Shown here piece after piece: positions 50,128 to 63,524 of a DNA stretch of 64,000 nt. The notes under the pieces are model-generated. The model saw only the letters and a program-made list of their open reading frames with translations. It ran no database searches and was not told the origin of the DNA. This DNA is from Torpedo marmorata (lineage: Eukaryota), in the NCBI GenBank assembly GCA_977017645.1, contig OZ360236.1, positions 20,460,001 through 20,524,000 on the forward strand, in the 5' to 3' direction. Within the stretch, counting starts at the first letter, position 1. Each line of letters begins with the position of its first letter. The position numbers and the translations under genes were made by a program.

Positions 50128-50612
50128 AGTTGTTCTTGAAGATGCAAAAAAAGTATGAACTGGAAACTTGCTTTGATGAAAAGCTATGAGTATTTCTCCT
50201 TGCCTACCATGCGGATATCTTTGATCATTTGAACAAATTGAATCTCAGGCTGCAAGGCAAGGGCACAACTATCATCCAGATTGTTGATGCTCCCAATGCA
50301 TTTATACAAAAACTTGAAAACTGGAAACACAAGGCTGAGGGAGGGAACTTTGCCGTGTTTGAATCTCTTTCAGCAGTAGCTGTTAATGGAATGGATGCTG
50401 ATGTTGCAAAGGAAGTTCTCTCGCATCTCAGCTGCCTCCGAGAAGAATTCCTGCACTACTTCCCAGAAATCAGCCGAGAAGGACTGGCACTGGTGAGGAA
50501 CCCCTTTCTTGTTAAAGTCAACAAAGTCCCTGATGATCTGCAAGATGAACTCATTGACCTTCAAAATGATTCTGGATGCAGAGCTGTTTTTGAGACTTCG
50601 TCTGTCGCTGAG

Positions 50613-51760
50613 TATAAGAGCCAAAGGCTCGGTTTCTACTTTTATCGCGCCGTTCCGATGGTCCCAGCGGGTGTCGGAGGAATCACGGAGATTAGTAGGC
50701 CGTGCTAGGCCTATTGAGTACTCTGCACATGCGCGGGAGTGCCGACGGGCGCATGCGCGGTGGGGAAGTGGCTGGAGCATGCGCGGTGGAGCATGCGCGA
50801 ATCGGGGAAGAAGTTATTATAAAACATGGCGACTTAGAGGAGGGTGAGTGAGATCGTCATTATTATGGTGACGTCTATCCAACAATAGTCACCTGGAGGC
50901 TAAGTGAGATACTTGTCTTTGACGCGTTTCAATTAATTTACCAACAAAGTCCAATATGTTCAAAAACTTTATTTACACATGTGACTTGCAGCAATCTTCA
51001 ATGACTTTAATATAAACAGTTCTTGAAAACGATGTATGATGAGTTCCTTTAAATGATTCCTTAAACTGTATTTAGATGTTCAAATAAACGATTTTAAACC
51101 ACAAAATAACTAGTTTAAAAGTTCAATGAAACTATCTATGAAACGCTATGAAACGGTCAGTAAAGATATGGCGATCTCACTCACCCTCCTACGTCGCCAT
51201 CTTTTTCCTATTCCCTTTACGATTCGTGCATGCTCACATCGCTCCTATTCCATTGCGCACGCTCCACCGTGCACACTACATCTCCCATACTACACCGCGC
51301 ACAACGACGTCAATTTCAGACTGCACATTCGCCCGTCGGCACTCCAGCGCATGCGCAGAGCACCAAACAGGCCGAGGACAGCCCAAACGTCGCGACTTCT
51401 CCACAACCCGTCGAGGCATCGGAGCACCGCGACCACGGTAAGTTATTGAGCCTACGGCTCTTACAGTCATAGTTTTCATTGACCGTTAGAAAGGAACATT
51501 ATTAAGAATCGTTATTAAAGACGTTATAAAGAATCGTTTTAAAGGAACGTTATTAAGAATCGTTATTAAGCATGGTTATCAAGGATTGTTTATATTTCGT
51601 TAAAGAAAATATTTAAGTTATTGAAGATTGCTACAAGTCATCATGTGTTAATAAACATTTTGAACATATTGGACTTTGTTAGTAAATTAATTGAAACGCG
51701 TCAAGAACAAATGTCTCATCTAGCCTCCAAGTGATTATTTATTGGATTGAAGTCACTACA
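50613..51760 (+). repeat. 5' LTR (538 bp once the insertion is removed)
   Basis: TATAAGAGCC...GTCACTACA; matches 62298-62861 apart from the 50861-51465 insert and a 26-bp indel. Confidence 0.92.
50861..51465 (-). mobile_element. Solo LTR of a related BEL family, inverted
   Basis: Reverse strand starts TGTAAGAGCCGTAGGCTC and shares the TTTGAACATATTGGACTTTGTT..AATTAATTGAAACGCGTCAA block; TSD GTCAT (50856-50860, 51466-51470). Confidence 0.88.
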
Positions 51761-52216
51761 TTTTAGTCAATGAAAAACATTGTTTGGAACAGAAAATTGA
51801 AGGAAAGAAGATAGAATAAGCTCTCTGTGCTTTGGACTGATATTTAAAATAAAATGGTGGCCATCTTGGAGATGCCTCAAGTTAGGGGCAGTTTGTAATC
51901 CACATCCATCTGCCATGAGTAACAGCCAGAGAGGGATTCAGAGCTTCTAATCTTATAGTAAAGTGTCCTATAAATACGTTGGAGAAACCATTTCTTGAAA
52001 ATCAGCGATATTATTGACGGATGCTGCAGTGGAAACTCGTTTGTTAATAGCAACACATTACAGTCATCTGAAGTGGTAGGCATAGTCTGTGGACTCCTTC
52101 TGTGTATCTTTGGCAAGTTTGAACACAGTTTGGATTTGCTGCTGCTCGTCCATTGGGGACTGTTGATTTGGCTAGTGTTGTGTATGCTCGAAGGACGGTG
52201 CAACAAGACGAGTAAA

Positions 52217-55200
52217 ATGGCCGCAGCAGCCGCTGACGCAGCAGCCGCTGATGTTGCTGTTGAGGAACAACGTACTGAAGACATGAAGGTTGTTCATCTC
52301 AAAGAAGAATTGAAGCGACGGAAACTAGATACAAGTGGAAATAAAAGTATTCTCATTGCAAGACTGAAGCTGGCAAAGGTAGAAGAGGCGGCAGCTTCAG
52401 TTGATGGGAATGAAGACATTGAAAACTCATTGCAAAAGACAACGACTGAACATGAAGACAGCAATGTGGAAATGGCTGAAAATGTGTCACCAAATGGTGA
52501 TGAAGAAAATGAAAAGGATGAAGAAACCGAAGAGGTTAAAGATGCAAAGGATGTACAATTTGAATTGGACAAAGAGGTAAGGAAGAAGACAACATCTGAC
52601 CTGCAGGACGAAATACAAGCATGTGACAGTGTCTCAAATGTTGAAAGCAGGAGAAGCAAACAAAGTTCTTCTGGTTCAAGCTCCAGAGTTTCTCGTACTT
52701 CAAGTTCTGCATCATCACGTACAAAGATTGAAGCTGAAATGGCTGCTCTTCTTGTATGACAAAAATCGCTTAAGGATAAACATGTTTTGGAAGAATAGCA
52801 GGAGCAGCTAAGAGAACAGGAGGAGCAGCTAAAGCAGAAACAGGAGCAGCTAAGGCAGAGCCAGCAGCTAAGGCAGAAACAGGAGCAGCTTAGGCAAAGC
52901 CAGGAGCAGCTAAGAGAACAGGAGGAGCAGCTAAGGCAGAGCCAGGAGCAGCTAAGAGAACAGGAGGAGCAGCTAAGGCAGAGCCAGGAGCAGCTAAGGC
53001 AGAGCCAGCAGCTAAGGAGGAGTCAGGAGCAGCTTAGACAGTGAAAGGAGCAGCAGGAGATGGAAGTAAACATTGCTATTGCTAGGGCCAGAATGAAGGT
53101 ACTAGAAGGCTCAATGGTATCTTGTGCTCGGAGTAAATTATCTAAAGTGTGCGATGATAAGAAGTCATATTTTTAAAAAGAGCCACAGGAAAATAAATCA
53201 ACCAAAAGGGTAGATATTTTAGTACCACGGGTACAAGACATTCAAATACAAGGACAAAGCCTTGTTATTAAGTCACATGTACCAGTGGTAACATCCGAAG
53301 ACAAAGCTGTGGCTTGGGTTCGGTCGAACGATGCAGCTCCCTTGGGATTCGAGTCAAGCATCAGAAATACGGGAGAAACTACATCGGTGAGGTTTCCAGA
53401 TACATTACCTGTAACAAGAGGTGGTGAACAGAGCAATGTATTATCATCCATGGAAAGAAAAAATGAAATCGCTGCATCATTGATTCAGTTACAGTCTCTC
53501 TCTTCTTTGCCCAAGAAAGAGATTCAAACTTTTGATGGTGATCCACTTCAGTACCAAGCGTTCATGAGATCTTTTAGATGCAATATTGAAAATAAATGCC
53601 AAGACCCTGACGAATGTCTTTATTATTTGGAAATGTTCACAGAAGGACAGCCAAGAGAACTTGTAAAGAGTTGTCAACATATGTCCTCGGAAAGAGGATT
53701 AGACAGAGCTAAGTTTTTACTAGAACAGCATTTTGGCAACAAGCATCGAATTGCTTTCACTTATATGGATAAAGCTCTTAAATGGTCATCAATAAATCCA
53801 AATGATGTAAAAGCTCTACAAGCATACACTCTCTTTTTAAGAGGATGTTGTAATGCCATGGAAGATATCGATAATATTCGTGAGCTTGACGTGCCTGGTA
53901 ATATGCAAATCATCTTAGATAAATTACCTTACAAGATGTGGGAGAGATGGAGAAATTTGGCTTGTGATTTACAGGAAAAATATGATCAAAGAGCTACCTT
54001 AAAGGATTTGGTAGATTTTCTTGAATGACAGGTGTACATTGAAACAGATCCAATATATGGAAATACCAGAGACAATTCAATGGGGAACAAAGATGTAAAG
54101 AGGTCTAACTCACAGCCTAGTCTGAAATTGAAAAGGAGTACTTTTGATACTAATGTTTCAGTTATAAATAAAGAAAAAGATAAAGTAAATAAGGAAAAGG
54201 AACGTTTGCCTAATGAGAAGAGTTGTTTGTTCTGTAAAGGTGGACATGCATTGGAAATGTGTTTACGGTTGGAAAAGAAGGAACATAATGAGAAGATCGC
54301 TTTCTTAAAGGAAAATGGAATATGTTTTAGCTGTCTGTGTAAAGGGAACATCTGTAATAACTGCAAGAAGCGACTTAACTGTAACATATGCAATTTGAAG
54401 CATCCTAGAATGTTGCATATCCATCAAAGAAACAAGGAATTGAAAAATGAGCAAACAGAAACAAAGGAAACATCAGAAAACAATGTTATAACCTCAGTTC
54501 AGACAAGTGGTCTTATCGGGGCCGGTGTGGATAACTGCAAACTTTCAATAGTGCCTGTACAAGTCCAGATCAAGAACGGGGATGCAACAGTACATACATA
54601 TGCATTTCTCGACCCAGGCAGCACTGCATCTTTTTGCAACGTGGGACTAATGAACAAACTTAATATTCAAGGAAGAAGGTCAAGAATTATGTTGAAAACC
54701 ATGGGACAAGAAAAGGTCGTTGAAACCAGCATTGTTTCAGGCTTAGAGGTTGCTGGATTGCATGACAAAATTTTTTATGATCTTCCAAGTTTATACACTC
54801 AGAAGACTATGCCTGTGCATGAAGGAAACATTCCACATAATAATGATTTCCATCATTTGTCTTGTCTGTGGAAGGTTTATTTACCTGAAGTTAATTCTGA
54901 GATAGAAATGCTGATTGGTTCAGATGTACCAAAAGTTTTGGAACCACTAGAAGTAATACAGAGTAAGGGAAATGGACCTTACGCTGTTAGAACCAAGCTT
55001 GGTTGGACAATCAATGGACCATTGGAAAGAAATAATGATATTGCTCAGGAACAGTTAGCAATAAATGTTAACAGGATTTCGGTTGTGAAATTTGATGAGT
55101 TAAGGGAAGAGCAAAATACTGTAAATAAGAAAGTCACTTTTGAAGAAAAGAAAACAGATCAATGTGAAGATAAATCAAAGGTATTTAAAACAACATTGAA

Positions 55201-55255
55201 GGAATTATTTTCATCAGAAATGGATGAAAATGAAGTATTAGAAAATGTTGCAAAT
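52217..55255 (+). pseudogene. BEL Gag-protease polyprotein with N-terminal SAP domain
   Basis: One frame with point stops: SAP (MKVVHLKEELKRRKLDTSGNKSILIARL), DSVS motif, heptad repeat, DUF1759-like FDGDPLQY, three Cys/His knuckles, YAFLDPGS protease, RTKLGWTINGP. Confidence 0.88.
52799..53058 (+). repeat. Coding minisatellite (18/21-bp units, CAGGAGCAGCTAAGGCAGAGC-like)
   Basis: About 12 units reading QEQLREQ / EEQLRQS / QEQLRQS in the Gag frame. Confidence 0.9.
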
Positions 55256-58200
55256 CAATACAATTTTTTGCACCAGTTGTATCTCACACCGCAAAAATTG
55301 AATAAATTTAAATCAGAAATATCAAATAAATGTTTTCGATGCGGCAAATAAATAGGAAAGTTTTTACATTTAACCTGGTCATGCCCCAAAGTAAAACCTT
55401 TCTGGACGGACTTAGGGAAACTCTAAGAACAAATTACAGAAATTCAGTTCCCTCAACGCCCAGAATTATTCCTATTGGGCAATATCTACGGCATAAGACC
55501 TAAGATGAGGCTGTCAAAATTTCAAATAAAATTTGTGGAGATCGCATTGGCGCTGGCCAGGAAATATATAGCGGTCACATGGAAGTCTGATTCCCATCTA
55601 GGTATGACAAGATGGAATGAGGAAATGTATAGTTGTGTTCCCCTTGAGAAGATTACCTATAATCTTAGAAATAGATATGATATTTTTTTTAAAGATTTGG
55701 ACTCCATATTTACAACACATGGCTGTAAATATATAACCAGGCCCCCCCCTCCCCTCGCTTCCAGGACCTATGTCCATTTCCTCTTCAGAAATCCGAGTAT
55801 GCCAAGTAATTTAACCATATAACCATATAACAATTACAGCACGGAAACAGGCCATTAGGCCCTTCTAGTCCGCACCGAACCAAACACTCCTCTCTAGTCC
55901 CACCTACCTGCACCCTGCCCATAATCCTCCACTTCCTTCTCATCCATATACCTGTCCAACTTTTTCTTAAATAATAAAATTGACTCTGCCGCCACTACTT
56001 CTCCCGGAAGCTCATTCCACACCGCTACCACTCTCTGAGTAAAGAAGTTCCCCCTCATGTTACCTCTAAACCTCTGCCCCTTAACTCTTAACTCATGTCC
56101 TCTTGTTTCAATCTCTCCTACTCTTAATGGAAATAGTCTATCCACATTCACTCTGTCTATCCCTTTCATAATCTTAAATACCTCTATCAAATCCCCTCTC
56201 AACCTTCTACGCTCCAAAGAATAAAGACCTAATCTGCTCAATCTCTCCTTGTACTCTAGATGCTAAAACCCAGGTAACATTCTGGTAAATCTTCTCTGCA
56301 CTCTCTCCACTCTGTTGATATCCTTCCTATAATTTGGCGACCAGAACTGCACACAGAACTCTAAACTAGGCCGCACCAACGCCTTATATAATCTCAACAT
56401 CACTTCCCAACTCCTATATTCTATGCAATGATTGATAAAGGCCAGCATACTAAAAGCCTTCTTCACCACCCTATTCACATGAGTTTCTACCTTCAGGGAA
56501 CGATGCACCGTTATTCCTAAATCTTTCTGCTCTTCTGTATTCATCAATGCTCTCCCATTTACTACGTATGTCCTGTTCTGATTCTTCTTACCAAAATGAA
56601 GCACCTCACACTTATCAGCATTAAACTCCATTTGCCATTTTTCAGTCCACTTTTCTAAGCAGCCCAAATCCCTCTGCAATCCTTGAAAACCTTCTTCATT
56701 ATCCACTATTCCACCTATCTTAGTATCATCTGCATATTTAAAAATCCAGTTCACCACCCCATCATCTAGATCATTAATGTATATAACGAACAACAATGGG
56801 CCCAATACAGATCCCTGAGGCACACCGCTGGTCACCGGCCTCCAACCTGACAGACAATTATCCACTACCACTCTCTGGCCTCTCCCTTTCAGCCAATGTT
56901 CAATCCATTTGACTATCTCAAAATTTATACCTAAAGACTGCACCTTCCTAACTAACCTTCCATGTGGTACCTTATCGAAGGCCTTACTGAAGTCCATATA
57001 GACAACATCCACTGTGCTACCCTCATCCACATTCCTAGTCACCTCTTCAAAAAATTCAATCAGATTGGTCAAACAGGACCTTCCGCTCACAAATCCGTGT
57101 TGAGTGTTCCTGATCAGACCCTGTCTATCCAGATATTTATAAGTACTATCTCTAAGAACTTTCTCCATTAATTTTTACTACCACAGACGTCAAACTTACA
57201 GGCCGATAATTGCCAGGCTTCCTCCTTGAACCCTTTTTAAATAACGGAACCACATGCGCAATACGCCAATCCTCTGGCACTATCCCCATCTCTAATGACA
57301 TTTGGAAAATCACCGGCAGAGCCTCTGCTATATCCTCACTTACTTCTCTCAAGGTCCTGGGGAAGATCCCGTCGGGTCCCGGAGACTTATCCACCTTTAT
57401 ATGCCTCAAAAGCCCTAACACTACATCTTTCGTAATCACTATATTCTCCATATTTACCCAATTTGCTTTTTTTATTCTCGCATATCCCAATATCCTTCTC
57501 CTTGGTGAATACCGAAGAAAATAAACTGTTCAATATCTCCCCCATTTCTCTAGGCTCCACACACAGTTTTCCGCTCTGATTCTCTAAGGGACCAATTTTG
57601 TCCCTTGCTTTCCTTTTACCATTAACGTATTTGTAGAAACCTTTTGCTTGCTATAGTCTCCTCGTACCTTCTTTTAGCTTTCCTAATTCCTCTCTTAAGA
57701 TTCCTTTTACATTCAATGTATTTTTCAAACATCTCCTTAATTCCATGCTTCTTATACTTAATGTACGCCTCCCTTTTTTTCGAACCAAATTTCCAATATT
57801 CCTCGAAAACCACGGCTCTCTCAAACCTTTTGCCCCTCCTTTTAACCTAACAGGAACATAAAGTTTTTGCACTCTCAAAATCTGATCTTTAAAAGACTTC
57901 CATCTCTCTACTACATCCTGCCCATAAAACAAATTGTCCCAATGCACACCCTGTAAGTCCTTTCGCATCTCCTCAAATCTAGCTTTTCCCCAATCAAATA
58001 CCTCAACCCTTGGCCCTGACTTATCTCTTTCCATAATGACATTGAAGCTGATGGCATTATGATCACTGGACCTGAAGTGCTCGCCAACACAAACCTCCGT
58101 CACTTGACCTATCTCATTTGCCAACAGTAGATCTAACACTGCTCCTTCTCTGGTCGGTACCTCTACATATTGTTGTAAAAAACTATCCTGCACACATTTC

Positions 58201-59542
58201 ACAAACTCCAACCCATCCAGCCCTTTCACAGAATGTGTTTCCCAATCTATATGTGGAAAATTAAAATCTCCCATAATTACAACCCTGTGCTTATCACAAA
58301 TATCCACTATCTCCCTACAGATTTGCTCCTCTAGGTCTCGGTCCCCTCCGGGTGGTCTATAATACACCCCTACAAGTGTAACTTCTCCTTTCCCACTCCT
58401 CAGTTCCACCCAAATAGCCTCCGTGGACGAGCCCTCTAATCTATCCTGCCTAAGCACCGCTGTAATATTCTCCCTGACAAGCAATGCAACACCACCTCCT
58501 CTTGCCCCTCCGACTCTATCACACCTAAAGCAACGAAACCCAGGGATATTCAGCTGCCAATCACATCCCTCCTGCAACCATGTCTCACTAATCGCTACCA
58601 CATCATACTTCCAAGTATCAATCCACACCTTCAGCTCATCCACCTTTTTTACAATACTCCTGGCATTAAAATATATGAATTTCAGAGATTTCCCACTTCT
58701 TAATCTCTGTTTGCCCTCATCTTTAGTAACAACATTATTATTTACTTTTTCTGCCAAATGCCCTTCATCTTCATCCAGAGCATTTCCCTTCTCTATCACC
58801 TGCCCATCCATATTCAAACACTGACTACAAACTTTCTATGTTTGCATTCTAACCTACTCCTTACTGCTCTGTACTATTTTGCTCCCTCCCCCCAACCATT
58901 CTAGTTTAAAGGCTCTTGAGTAGCCCTAGCAAATACCCCTGCCAGGATCCTGGTCCCCCTGGGATTCAAGTGTAACCTGTCCTTACTGTACAGGTCACAT
59001 CTCCCCCAAAAAAGGTCCCAGTGATCCAGAATCTTGAAACCCTGCCCCTTACTCCACCCCTTCAGCCACGTGTTAATCCTCCACCTCATTCTATTCCTAC
59101 TCTCACTGTCACGTGGCACAGGGAGTAATCCGGAGATTACCCCCTTTGCGGTCCTTCTTTTTAACTCCCTACCTAACTGCCTGTACTCACTTTTTAGGAC
59201 CTCTTCTCTATTCCTCCCTATGTCATTGGTACCTACATGTACCACGACCTCTGGCTCCTGTCCCTCCCCCTTTAGGATATCCGGGACACGAGCAGCAATT
59301 TAAGCCTGTGGGGTGGCCGACGAGCCTCCAACGTCTTCTTTCCTTTTCTATTTCAACCTTTTCTTATTCTATTCCTCTCTTTTTTTTTTCTTTTAGGGGG
59401 GAATTGGGTGGGTTTTCCTTTGTTTGTAATTTTGTTGTAGTTTTTTAGTATAATAGTCAACAGACGAATATTATATTTGATGATGTATTATTTTTGTTAT
59501 TGATAATATGCTTTAAAAATACAAATAAAATATTTAAAAAAA
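55256..59542 (+). mobile_element. L1-clade LINE 3' fragment, split by CR1
   Basis: QYNFLHQLYLTP..CFRC..HLTWSCPKV..FW ORF2 C-terminus; AATAAA and A tail at 59524-59542; 16-bp TSD AGAAAATGTTGCAAAT (55240-55255, 59543-59558) at a TT/AGAAAA site. Confidence 0.9.
55815..59293 (-). mobile_element. CR1 LINE with partial ORF1 (SGNH esterase) and frameshifted ORF2 (APE + RT)
   Basis: VHVGTNDIG..DRLHL; YFNARSI, ISETWL, MGDFNFPHIDW, SSDH; QHGF, DFSKAFD, GVPQGSVLGP, YADD; (TTATATGG)n tail; possible TSD AG(T/C)AATTTAA. Confidence 0.93.
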
Positions 59543-59742
59543 AGAAAATGTTGCAAATACTACTGGTGATTATTCCTGTGTAATTGAATCAGAGGCAGGA
59601 ATAAAATAAATGACTGAGAACAAATTTGAAAGTAGATTTTGTAGCTCAGAGGTTACAGCAGACAAAGTTAATAAAGAAATGTTGCAACATGATGTAAAAC
59701 TGGAGAACACAGGAAATTGTGCTGATGGAATAAAGAAGCATG

Positions 59743-61340
59743 TCAGAATCAGAATCAGAATCAGAATTTATTGTCATGAACAAGTCATGAAATTCGGTGT
59801 TTTGCGGCAGCATCATAGTGCAATTAACATTCATATTACCATCTAACGACATTACTATAAAAAATTATAAACAATAGTGCACGAAAAGTAAGGTAGTGTC
59901 TTTGGTTCATTGATTATTCAGGAATCTGATGGCAGCGGGGAAGAAGCTGTCCTTGTGCCATTGAGGGCTCGTCTTTAGGCTCCTGTACCTTTTCCCCGAT
60001 GGAAGCAGAGTGAAGAGGGCATGGCCTGGGTGGTGGGGGTCCTTGAGGATAGAGGCTGCTTTTTTAAGACACCGCCTCATGTAGATGTCCTCGATGGAGT
60101 GAAGTTTGGTGCCTGTGATGTCACAGGCCGAGTTAACAACCTTCTGGAGTTTACTCTTGCCCTGGGAGTTGGCGCCACCATACCAGGCAGTGATGCAACC
60201 AGCCAGAATGCTCTCCACGGTACACCTGTAGAAGTTTACGAGAGTCTTTGGTGACATACCGAATCTCCGCAAACACCTCACAAAGTATAGCCGTTGACGA
60301 GCCTTCTTTGTGATTGCATCCACGTGGATGCTCCAGGACAGATCCTCGGAGATGTTGACACCCAGGAATTTGAAGTTCTTGACCCTCTCCACGACTGAGC
60401 CCTCGATGAGGACTGGGTCGTATTCCCCTGACTTCCTCCGGAAGTCCACAATCATCTCCTTGGTTTTGCTGACGTTGAGCTCAAGGTTGTTGTCATTACA
60501 CCATTCAACGAGCTGATCTATCTCCCTCCTGTACACATCCTCATTGCCGTTTGTGATTCTGCCGACAACTGTGGTGTCATCGGCAAACTTGTATATGGCA
60601 TTGGAATTGTGCCTGGCCACACAGTCATGAGTGTATAACGAGTAGAGCAGTGGACTAAGCATGCATCCTTGGGGTGCGCCTGTGTTGATAATCAGTGAGG
60701 AGGAGACGTTGTTTCCAATTCGTACTGACTGGTTTTCCGATGAGAAAGTCAAGGATCCAGTTGCAGAGGGGGGTACAGAGGCCTAGAGTTTGTAGCTTCT
60801 CGACCAGCACTGAGGGAATAATGGTATTGAAGGCCGAGCTGTAGTCGATGAAGAGCAACCGTATGTATGAATTGCTGTTTTCGAGGTGATCCAGAGCTGA
60901 GTGGAGAGCCAGCGATATTGCATCTGCTGTGGAGCGATTGTGGCGATAGGCGAATTGCAGTGGGTCCAGATCTTTGCTTAGGTATGTGTTAATTCTGGCC
61001 ATGACCAGCCTCTCAAAACATTTCATCACAGTAGAAGTTAGTGCTACTGGGCGGTAGTCGTTGAGGCAGCTCACACTACTCTTCTTGGGTACCGGGATGA
61101 TTGATGCCCTTTTGAAGCAGGTGGGAACCTCTGACTGCCGTAATGAGAGGTTGAAAATGTCCGTGAACACTCCGGCTAGTTGGTTGGCGCAGATTTTCAA
61201 TACCCTGCCAGGTACACCGTCAGGGCCTGACGCCTTGCGAGGGTTCACCCTCTTAAATGATGTTCTGACGTCGCCCTCAGAGACAGATATCACAGGGTCC
61301 TCAGCCTTTTCAGGGATTCTATTAGGCACTGTTTTGTTCT
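59743..61340 (-). mobile_element. Rex1/Babar-type LINE, 5' truncated
   Basis: [39 protein letters not shown]; (TTCTGA)n tail; one frameshift. Confidence 0.92.
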
Positions 61341-61344
61341 TCTT

Positions 61345-62142
61345 CTCAAGTGATTGATAATTTAATGCAATTGAATTGAGAGAACAAAATGTTGAAAAGG
61401 GAATTGGAAATATTGGATAATCATGAAAAAAGTAAACAGAAAGATTTAATTGTGAATAAAATTCACAGTCATAAAGTGGAAGAAAAGAATAACTGCTAAA
61501 GAAATAAATACAGTTATTGAGGAAAGAGATTCAGCATTATCAAGATGTAAAAGGTTGGAGGAAGAGATTAATATTTTGAAAGAGAACAAGTTATTCGTTA
61601 GTAACACAAAACAGCTGACTATAGAAAACAATCAAGAATGTAAATTGAAGGCTCAGCTACTAACAATGCAGAAAGAATGTGATATTGCATTGCAGCAATG
61701 TAACAAGCAAGATGAAGAAATTCAAATATTTCAAGTTTACCATAGCAGGGTTGACAATAGAAGTACCAATGTAACACATGATATTTTCACTTCAGATCAA
61801 GTTATTAATTTCTCGGAAGAAACTGAGACTGAATTGAAAGTTGCAAAATTGGATTTGGAATTGCAGGAAAAGGCAATAGAAACCAGAGTGGTTAAAGAGA
61901 CTCATTTATTAAAATCGAGAGGATCAGATAAATATTCAAAATCTGGTTATAAGAGTTTAGATTCTTCATATGAGAAGTAGAATAAAGGAATAAAGGAAGA
62001 AAGGAATAAAGCGAAACCACATGCTGAAGAAGTACCTTGTGTTAAATTCAAAAAGAAAGCTGTACCTATTTTGTCTGAGGAAGATTTGAGGTTTACTGGT
62101 CGACGATCTAACTCAAAGATTCTGGAGATAAAAGAACTTTGA
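61345..62142 (+). pseudogene. Coiled-coil C-terminal part of the BEL polyprotein, MIPOL1-like
   Basis: [28 protein letters not shown]...LTIENNQECKLKAQLLTMQ...EEIQIFQVYHS and KLDLELQEKAIE resemble recalled vertebrate MIPOL1 segments; no introns; lies inside the LTRs. Confidence 0.7.
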
Positions 62143-62297
62143 TAAGTACGAAATGACTGTATTTTGTTGTTTTTGTAGACAGAGTGATGGTAAACTCTGG
62201 TCTTATGAAGAAAGAAGAAGATTTGTATATTGTTTGAAAGTTATATGTTTATTATAATTTGTAATTGATTGTGTAATTATTATTTAAGACATTACGG

Positions 62298-62861
62298 TGT
62301 AAGAGCCAAAGGCTCAGTTCCTACCTTTATCGTGCCGTTCCGATGGTCCCAGCGGGTGTCGGAGGAGTCATGGAGATTAGTAGGCCGTGCTAGGCCTATT
62401 GAGTACTCTGTGCATGCGTGGGAGTGCCGACGGGCGCATACGCGGTGGGGAAGTGGCTGGAGCATGAGCAGTGGGGAATTGGCTGGAGCATGCGCGGTGG
62501 AGTTTGCGCGAATCGGGGAAGAAGTTATTATAAAACATGGCAACTTAGAGGAGGGTGAGTGAGATCGTCATAGTTTTCATTGACAGTTAGAAAGGAACGT
62601 TATTAAGAATCGTTATTAAAGACGTTATAAAGAATCATTTTAAAGGAACGTTATTAAGAATCGTTATTAAGCATGGTTATCAAGGATTGTTTATATTTCG
62701 TTAAAGAAGATATTTAAGTTATTGAAGATTGCTACAAGTCATCGTGTGTTAATAAACATTTTGAACATATTGGACTTTGTTAGTAAATTAATTGAAACGC
62801 GTCAAGAACAAATGTCTCACCTAGCCTCCAAGTGACTATTTATTGGATTGAAGTCACTACA
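62298..62861 (+). repeat. 3' LTR (564 bp)
   Basis: TGTAAGAGCC...GTCACTACA followed by TSD CTGAG. Confidence 0.93.
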
Positions 62862-63524
62862 CTGAGGTTTGGTCAAAAATGATAGATAGTTACCCCAACA
62901 TTGCAAAGGGGTAATCTTCAGAAGATCCTACCCTTCATGACCACTTATGTTTGTGAATCAGGCTTTTCGATGTTGCTGCAGTTGAAGACAAAGGCACAAA
63001 ACATCATTGAAGTGGAGGCAGATCTCAGGTGTGCATTATCTACCACAGAACCAAGGATGTGAAAACTGGTGAAGAACCTTCAGGAAGAGGAGTCTTATTA
63101 GAGTGGCTTGAGCTTTTATTTTGATTGGGAATTTTGATGTTCAGTGTATGCTTGCAGTGTTTTTTGTTCTTTAAAAATGTTAAATAAAATACTTTAAATT
63201 AGATAAAGATGTGTTTCTTACAGAGCCTCCTTTGACTTGAAAATGTTGCTCAGTCTTTGCCACTCGTGGGACCTGGCATGTTAGGCTGGAATCCAGGTGG
63301 GCGTTAGACCGAAAAAGGTCGAGAACCACTGCCTTATTGTATAAAAGGTCAACTACTCTGGATTGTTGTGTGATATTCTCTGTGAATCATGTTTGCTTTT
63401 ATGATATATAATTCCATAGTAATTTTGAATAGAAAGACCAATTGTCTTAAAAATGAGGGATTTTGTGATAACCGTACTTTGTTAAAGGAGGTAAGTTATT
63501 GTGAGCTCTTTATGTTTGTGTCTC

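Follow-up and report, generated by a model that had tools for sequence, protein, structure and literature searches.

A pol-less BEL/Pao family in the electric ray Torpedo marmorata carries a BRCA1/MIPOL1/Elongin A cassette with a likely contribution from a circular RNA

Retroelements that take up host exons are known from several settings. Transducing retroviruses with gag-onc fusions carry host exons in frame with gag in place of pol and need a helper; they are selected for the activity of the host protein and are not germ-line families. The maize long terminal repeat (LTR) element Bs1, as far as the accessible parts of two sources describe it, joins exon fragments from three unlinked genes of its host into a hybrid frame and was later re-transposed with shared switch points; it is copia-like, occurs in 1-5 copies, includes one out-of-frame piece and is interpreted as a new gene under constraint (PMC5131818, PMC5408686). 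For LTR-mediated retroposition in animals, the available portion of the text reports template-switch capture at microsimilarities, multi-gene chimeras, one mosquito BEL case and captured elements that act as non-autonomous elements, with a handful of copies per case, no description of genome-scale amplification, and no occurrence of the word "circular" in the main text (PMC5131818). Mouse circRfwd2 pseudogenes (33 high-confidence copies) have a non-colinear junction at splice sites, contain exons of the circle only, lack poly(A) and lie in an LTR neighbourhood; in the accessible text LTRs are merely enriched in their flanks and the mechanism is called mysterious (PMC4897178). Here we describe a BEL/Pao element at positions 50613 to 62861 of a 64,000-nucleotide stretch of the Torpedo marmorata genome (assembly GCA_977017645.1, contig OZ360236.1, positions 20,460,001 to 20,524,000; the whole stretch is referred to as the window).

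In this element the position of pol is taken by a cassette of captured host sequence, about 1,000 bases in the window copy, of which MIPOL1 contributes only about 450 and BRCA1 and Elongin A the remainder. We put a probability of roughly 0.72 on the reading that it represents a pol-less BEL/Pao family with a BRCA1/permuted-MIPOL1/Elongin A cassette, in which the MIPOL1 part likely stems from a circular RNA (circRNA), the Pol of helpers likely mobilises the element and the cassette likely acts as a translated spacer. Compared with Bs1, this is a vertebrate BEL/Pao family, estimated at tens of thousands of copies and with one permuted piece, in which residues are neutral, the frame is kept and the cassette has moved between backbones. 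In contrast to circRfwd2, the junction lies within a full LTR-gag-protease-LTR element that has target site duplications (TSDs) and identified pol-bearing relatives. Unlike in transducing retroviruses, no amino-acid constraint is seen and env is absent. No description of a BRCA1/MIPOL1/Elongin A family was found in the accessible literature, a search that left subscription papers, Repbase and Dfam outside its scope; on the keeping of reading frames in LTR elements it likewise yielded nothing useful.

The first-pass annotation of the window had proposed that pol was replaced by one MIPOL1-like coiled coil, taken from spliced host mRNA and fused in frame behind Gag and protease. The replacement, the spliced source and the frame hold; the cassette is a mosaic of three genes, and its MIPOL1 part is permuted at exact splice sites instead of following linear mRNA order. 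The segment 61456-61977 matches MIPOL1 of Narcine bancroftii (E 2e-40, 76% identity). In this protein search 138 of 788 candidates passed, and the named entries among the 120 matches listed are all MIPOL1, save a metagenome entry that carries a wrong name but the same Pfam families. BRCA1 fills the interval from the protease to MIPOL1 (E 3e-70; 14 matches among 903 candidates, 13 of them named BRCA1 homologues), and what follows MIPOL1 is Elongin A (E 9e-70, Pfam PF06881 above its cut-off); the Pfam search identified neither the MIPOL1 nor the BRCA1 pieces. The host genes were mapped in the same genome, MIPOL1 on C40, BRCA1 on C61 and Elongin A on C41, and their parts outside the capture match the host gene alone. 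A generic coiled-coil bias behind the MIPOL1 match is ruled out by the specificity of the protein search together with the mapping to host exons. All captured pieces are intronless across host introns, i.e., spliced, lie between LTR-element sequence, show microsimilarity at the switch points and lack poly(A), the features by which LTR-mediated retrocopies are recognized.

In the window copy the cassette runs on the plus strand. BRCA1 contributes residues 233-286 of the Narcine model P0121 at 55110..55255 (two host exons, spliced), residues 282-348 at 59559..59742 (from the large host exon, DNA identity 85%) and residues 348-379 at 61345..61449; the captured part contains neither RING nor BRCT. 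Residues 1-185 of P0121 itself differ from the RING start seen in other rays and by eye resemble a retroelement gag, probably a gene-model artefact. MIPOL1 follows with the 3' part of exon h and exons i and j, spliced (61442..61745, ending at the exon j donor), and then with the 5' part of exon d and part of exon e (61746..61890), with an in-frame 27-codon deletion between d and e. Elongin A pieces (residues ~420-477 and 513-533 of P0135) occupy 61890..62120 and end short of a BC-box-like motif, after which the final codons and stop codons of a helper-type pol are rejoined in frame at 62121..62145. The earlier estimate of about 380 codons beyond Gag-protease agrees with the sum of 55101-55255, 59559-59742 and 61345-62142 (~379 codons), and, as had been reported, the internal pieces of the window element contain no reverse transcriptase (RT), RNase H or integrase motif.

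The order of MIPOL1 residues in the element is 437-553, then 295-385. The earlier alignment of 61449-61746 with MIPOL1 is real, and its limit at 61746, which passed without comment, is the permuted junction (61745..61746, plus strand). In host MIPOL1, residue 553 closes exon j, which is followed by a GT donor, and residue 295 opens exon d, behind a tandem acceptor located ~206 kb upstream; exon j runs straight into exon d, with zero gap, in 59 of 59 copies. The captured order is h(48-171), i, j, d, e plus 17-18 nt of f, wholly within exons d-j, which sum to 780 nt and have a stop-free MIPOL1 frame. Matches to exons c and k were not in place in 19 of 20 copies of subfamily A (see below), and none was listed for any of them. 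Each host MIPOL1 exon is single-copy within the 330 kb read, and host-type contigs of run X3, guessed to be RNA, have the linear orders c-d-e..h and i-j-k. A downstream donor joined to an upstream acceptor is the signature used for circRNA-derived pseudogenes in the accessible part of Dong et al. (PMC4897178), and a mouse circ-Mipol1 has been reported, with the exons not stated in the portion available (PMC9888537). With an exact splice-site permutation and nothing from exons outside the circle, the MIPOL1 part has the sequence characteristics of a circRNA-derived retrocopy and likely derives from a back-spliced circular RNA, a host circle that we infer from the element.

The cassette is not a peculiarity of this locus. 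Searched at the DNA level, the same genome (6.22 Gb) yielded 3,082 first-look candidates, and the 39 other scored matches are 94-95% identical to the window element. All 39 carry the post-protease cassette and have no room for pol, and most have gag, protease and LTRs inside the 10 kb fetched; a single-locus secondary insertion into an element whose other copies have a normal pol is thereby ruled out. Subfamily B, which includes the window copy, is ~85% identical to the host exons and shortened by deletions. Subfamily A (L097-L116 and others), at 91-98% identity to the host exons, has a cassette of BRCA1 residues ~201-413, MIPOL1 and Elongin A residues 377-624, and subfamily C has an additional Elongin A piece (residues 100-167) at the front. 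LTR pairs have a median identity of 94% in B and 92.5% in A, with an exact 5-bp TSD for 7 of the 18 pairs in B and 4 of the 11 in A; two A pairs and one C pair are other repeats, which widens the identity ranges.

A total of 610 kb that had been fetched for reasons other than the element, three host-gene regions plus ten 10-kb stretches chosen arbitrarily, contains six copies of the MIPOL1 junction and two pol-bearing elements; two of the eight "cassette" matches there are host exons, hence the junction was counted. Extrapolation gives ~61,000 copies genome-wide (Poisson range 22,000-133,000), or ~44,000 without the MIPOL1 gene region, where four of the six sit. The first-look protein candidates (57,437 for MIPOL1, 90,368 for Elongin A and 6,618 for the Pao family PF05380) are not copy numbers. 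In the host MIPOL1 region (G000:C40:64320001-64650000) four cassette copies and two pol-bearing elements lie between exons, and near-identical Elongin A-bearing copies occur on the small unplaced contigs G000:C2005, C1027 and C2476 (L155), perhaps as tandem or sex-linked expansions. Contigs from two other organisms (X1 record 5, X2 record 11, X3 record 19) span the permuted junction and differ in many letters, so that the family is probably not confined to the Torpedo marmorata genome, the runs being only guessed to be RNA.

The assignment to a non-autonomous BEL/Pao LTR family made in the first-pass annotation is supported by the many copies, the lack of pol and the pol-bearing relatives with the same LTR start, the helpers whose search it had suggested. 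Ten of 20 fetched pol-bearing loci, which were picked for long frames, have frames of 2,018-2,134 residues and LTRs that begin TGTAAGAGCC and are 97-100% identical within each pair; over gag-protease the long-frame copies are 77-87% identical to B. Copies L117-L126 combine LTR pairs of 97-100% identity with frames of more than 2,000 residues, which indicates recent BEL/Pao activity in this genome. Helper codons 1-895 are retained in B, and those up to 946 in A and 935 in C; codons ~896-2006 are missing in B and 947-2006 in A. A protease tree built from 44 natural copies (groups named beforehand; L026, with a split protease, excluded) places B as sister to ten pol-bearing copies (98/93), and a single origin of all cassette backbones, with A, B and C together, is rejected (approximately unbiased test, p-AU 4e-6). 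The cassette was thus transferred to a new backbone, which suggests co-packaging with helpers. Judging from the layout and the recombinant backbone, mobilization in trans by helper Pol is likely.

Most cassette junctions have short microhomology, and in 25 of the 28 copies with that region (A/C copies, e.g., L102:7081-7120) ~17 nt resembling the start of an A-type LTR separate MIPOL1 exon f from Elongin A. Host RNAs may have been co-packaged and picked up through template switches over several steps, in one of which a sister element would have inserted in the MIPOL1 piece and truncated it before a later template switch added Elongin A. At polarizable host sites the element retains the ancestral residue at 8 of 9 positions derived in its own genome and at 23 of 25 derived in Narcine, which dates the capture near the split from Narcine; a capture long after that split is not supported.

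Gag-protease and cassette evolve differently, as judged from changes counted against the commonest codon of each column. Between groups, the ratio of nonsynonymous to synonymous divergence (dN/dS) in gag-protease is 0.27-0.74, and in B the nonsynonymous:synonymous (N/S) counts are 126:84 for shared and 641:193 for private changes (p 2e-6), the shared ones being more synonymous; gag-protease is under purifying selection. In the cassette of B the counts are 68:20 shared and 373:98 private (p 0.67), and in A 26:16 and 377:123 (p 0.065, a synonymous lean). The ratio of nonsynonymous to synonymous polymorphism (pN/pS) of the cassette relative to the host is 0.98 in B, 0.81 in A and 0.80 in C, and N/S between subfamilies (2.8 and 2.7) matches a neutral simulation. 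The cassette residues drift neutrally, unlike those of a constrained retrogene, and, given the B value, a retained coiled-coil function of MIPOL1 is not supported.

The frame behaves otherwise. In the cassette of B there are no fixed stops in 353 columns with 133 fixed changes, where 8.2 are expected, and zero stops occurred in 0 of 5,000 simulations. The modal frame is preserved at all internal junctions, the internal indels shared by a majority of copies are all multiples of 3, and by our own count ~16 non-splice junctions or shared indels preserve the frame, including the return of B to the helper stop. Nine cases of shared stops were seen: four lie at CpG codons and are likely recurrent, and the other five are each found in 2-3 copies. 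The open frame, not the protein sequence, is what is kept; the reason we infer as follows. The element would make its own Gag and protease and borrow RT and integrase from intact relatives, while the cassette would be translated filler in the old pol position, with no host-like protein function, and selection would keep ribosomes running to near the old pol stop. Untranslated tails can affect the stability and packaging of an RNA. An early stop would leave such a tail of 1-2 kb, which may destabilize the RNA or reduce its packaging in cis.

Several points weigh against this account. Among the contigs listed, no host-type record bridges the permuted junction, which is spanned by element-type contigs only, the host-type bridges being linear; moreover, the letters AG(C) at the exon j end and exon d start also occur at the linear junctions, and a template switch could therefore mimic back-splicing. 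The test for fixed stops is significant in B only and weak in A (P 0.25) and C (P 0.064), and A and C copies were chosen for their similarity to host proteins, a choice biased towards open frames, whereas B copies were chosen by DNA likeness only. Towards the 3' end, 11 of 12 A copies meet the helper end in the wrong frame, the subfamily reading slightly beyond it, and the last internal junction of B splits 18:15:2 in an A-run. A 2-nt deletion is common to 5 of 38 B copies; a frameshifted sublineage was considered and rejected, as minority codons are no more often shared among these five than among other pairs, and the five are not a clade. Shared gag variants could derive from recombination with helpers instead of selection within the family. 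Finally, expression and translation of the fusion are presumed from the sequence, with runs that are "RNA?" guesses, and RNA decay and packaging enter as the simplest proposal from general knowledge.

Alternative explanations concern either the origin of the permutation or the role of the cassette. That the same element acquired its permuted MIPOL1 without a circular RNA, through trans-splicing, an ancestral tandem duplication of exons or a jump of RT on linear mRNA at the shared AG(C), would alter the origin of the permutation only, and we consider it unlikely. There is a single permuted junction, the capture amounts to less than one turn (~590 of 780 nt), and other routes to non-colinear junctions are noted in the accessible part of Dong et al. 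(PMC4897178); yet the two breakpoints both fall exactly at splice sites, the host exons are single-copy in the 330 kb read, nothing was captured from outside d-j, and circ-Mipol1 is reported in mouse, without its exons in the part available (PMC9888537). Rather more doubtful is a cassette protein that works for the element, with the Elongin A region of A recruiting Elongin B/C and a cullin ligase, or with the protein serving as a decoy for BRCA1 or MIPOL1. Some viral proteins do recruit Elongin B/C and a cullin ligase. The region of SLFEQCIRVL in subfamily A is presumably a BC box. A strict pattern picks up this motif, with no more than 1-2 changes, in 10 of 20 A copies; it matches the human Elongin A sequence in PDB 8oev, and the shared cassette changes in A lean synonymous (p 0.065, see above). 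Against this, B lacks the motif, ending at residue 533, and is abundant nonetheless, the window copy likewise being without it; N/S of the cassette between subfamilies is neutral, the BRCA1 piece holds no RING or BRCT, and the A copies were selected by protein likeness. We are just as sceptical of a wider version, in which a BEL/Pao parasite built the cassette near the split between two lineages of electric rays, passed it between backbones and outnumbers its helpers through the advantage of a translated cassette, including in A a working Elongin BC box; if true, the BC box of A would be a retrotransposon-borne hook for a host ubiquitin ligase.

A cassette that is a neutral passenger, its open frame a product of chance, in-frame microhomology and copy choice, appears still less probable. 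It would fit the neutral N/S throughout the cassette and the microhomology at the junctions, and in-frame capture is common in young LTR retrocopies in the part of Tan et al. available (PMC5131818). It does not fit subfamily B, which has 0 fixed stops against 8 expected although it was chosen by DNA likeness alone, nor the indels in multiples of 3, the ~16 in-frame junctions or indels and the helper stop that B regained in frame. Least probable of all is that the host pieces shield the element, in that small-RNA silencing would also strike BRCA1 or Elongin A mRNA and capture would be favoured at the RNA level. The idea of an RNA-level shield comes from plant gene-capture work. Of the three source genes, two have core roles in genome maintenance or transcription, and cassette copies seem commoner than pol-bearing ones (6 vs 2 in 610 kb), but the drift of B to ~85% host identity would erode a shield, and a shield leaves the open frame unexplained. 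The translated spacer, mobilized by helper Pol, is the reading that we prefer.

The remaining features of the window copy bear out the limits given in the first-pass annotation, with both LTRs and a CTGAG TSD (50608..50612 and 62862..62866, plus strand). Its flanks form one interrupted DNA-transposase-like frame, decayed, at 50190-50612 and 62867-63070, which is continuous over the TSD and has no Pfam match; we take it to be hAT-like. The 5' LTR (50613..51760, plus strand) starts with TA, not TG. Its 5' part is 85.7% identical to the 3' LTR (62298..62861, plus strand) over 272 columns with one gap, and its 3' part 97.6% identical over 295 nt. It is split by an inverted solo LTR of helper type (50861..51465, minus strand), which starts TGTAAGAGCCGTAGG, has its own 5-bp TSD, GTCAT, and is 80% identical over its full length to the LTRs of the pol-bearing copies L133 and L136; helper activity went on after the window copy had inserted. 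About 25 nt at 62275-62297 are missing, including the purine-rich tract that precedes the 3' LTR elsewhere.

The gag region (52217..54500, plus strand) is broken by stops in this copy and encodes a SAP domain, a Gln/Glu-rich repeat, DUF1759 and Cys-His knuckles; SAP and DUF1759 exceed their Pfam cut-offs. The Gln/Glu-rich repeat, at 52760-53054, has a 21-nt period and varies in length between copies and helpers. The BEL/Pao aspartic protease (54501..55113, plus strand) reaches the end of the helper-frame homology (~helper codon 895); Asp_protease_2 and DUF1758 are both below cut-off, the DPGS motif is present, and the Gag-protease is colinear with that of a relative bearing PF05380 and PF18701. 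Two later insertions of long interspersed nuclear elements (LINEs) lie where they had been placed before. The insertion at 55256..59558 has a 16-bp TSD and contains a minus-strand endonuclease/RT LINE, presumably L1 or CR1, labels that go back in part to the first-pass annotation; that at 59743..61344 (minus strand) encodes RVT_1 and ALKBH8_N and owes its label Rex1 to the same annotation. Both are private to the window copy and absent from the 39 other copies fetched.

A retrocopy survey of the Vertebrate Genomes Project, in its accessible part, puts MIPOL1 at the head of the genes most often retrocopied in cartilaginous fishes and reads this as functional sculpting tied to non-LTR activity; an LTR carrier, a circle, BRCA1 and Elongin A are not given in that part (bioRxiv 10.64898/2026.06.26.734816). 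SUDS3, SDF2L1, SLU7 and ZNF276 rank after MIPOL1 in the same portion of the survey and may be cargo of similar elements. The MIPOL1 retrocopies of the survey would be copies of the present BEL/Pao family, a simpler account of the top rank of MIPOL1 than functional filtering. The family would provide a full structural record of circRNA retrotransposition by an LTR element, the mechanism left open in the accessible part of the circRfwd2 study (PMC4897178), and a case of host-gene capture far larger than the published ones found (1-5 and 33 copies). If many of the estimated copies are near full length, they may make up as much as a few percent of the 6.2-Gb genome. Selection for an open frame appears separable here from selection for protein sequence, and constraints from cis-translation and RNA decay can be tested on thousands of natural copies. 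For the ray itself, very many fragments of BRCA1 and Elongin A would lie under LTR promoters, which matters for genome annotation and may permit small-RNA cross-talk.

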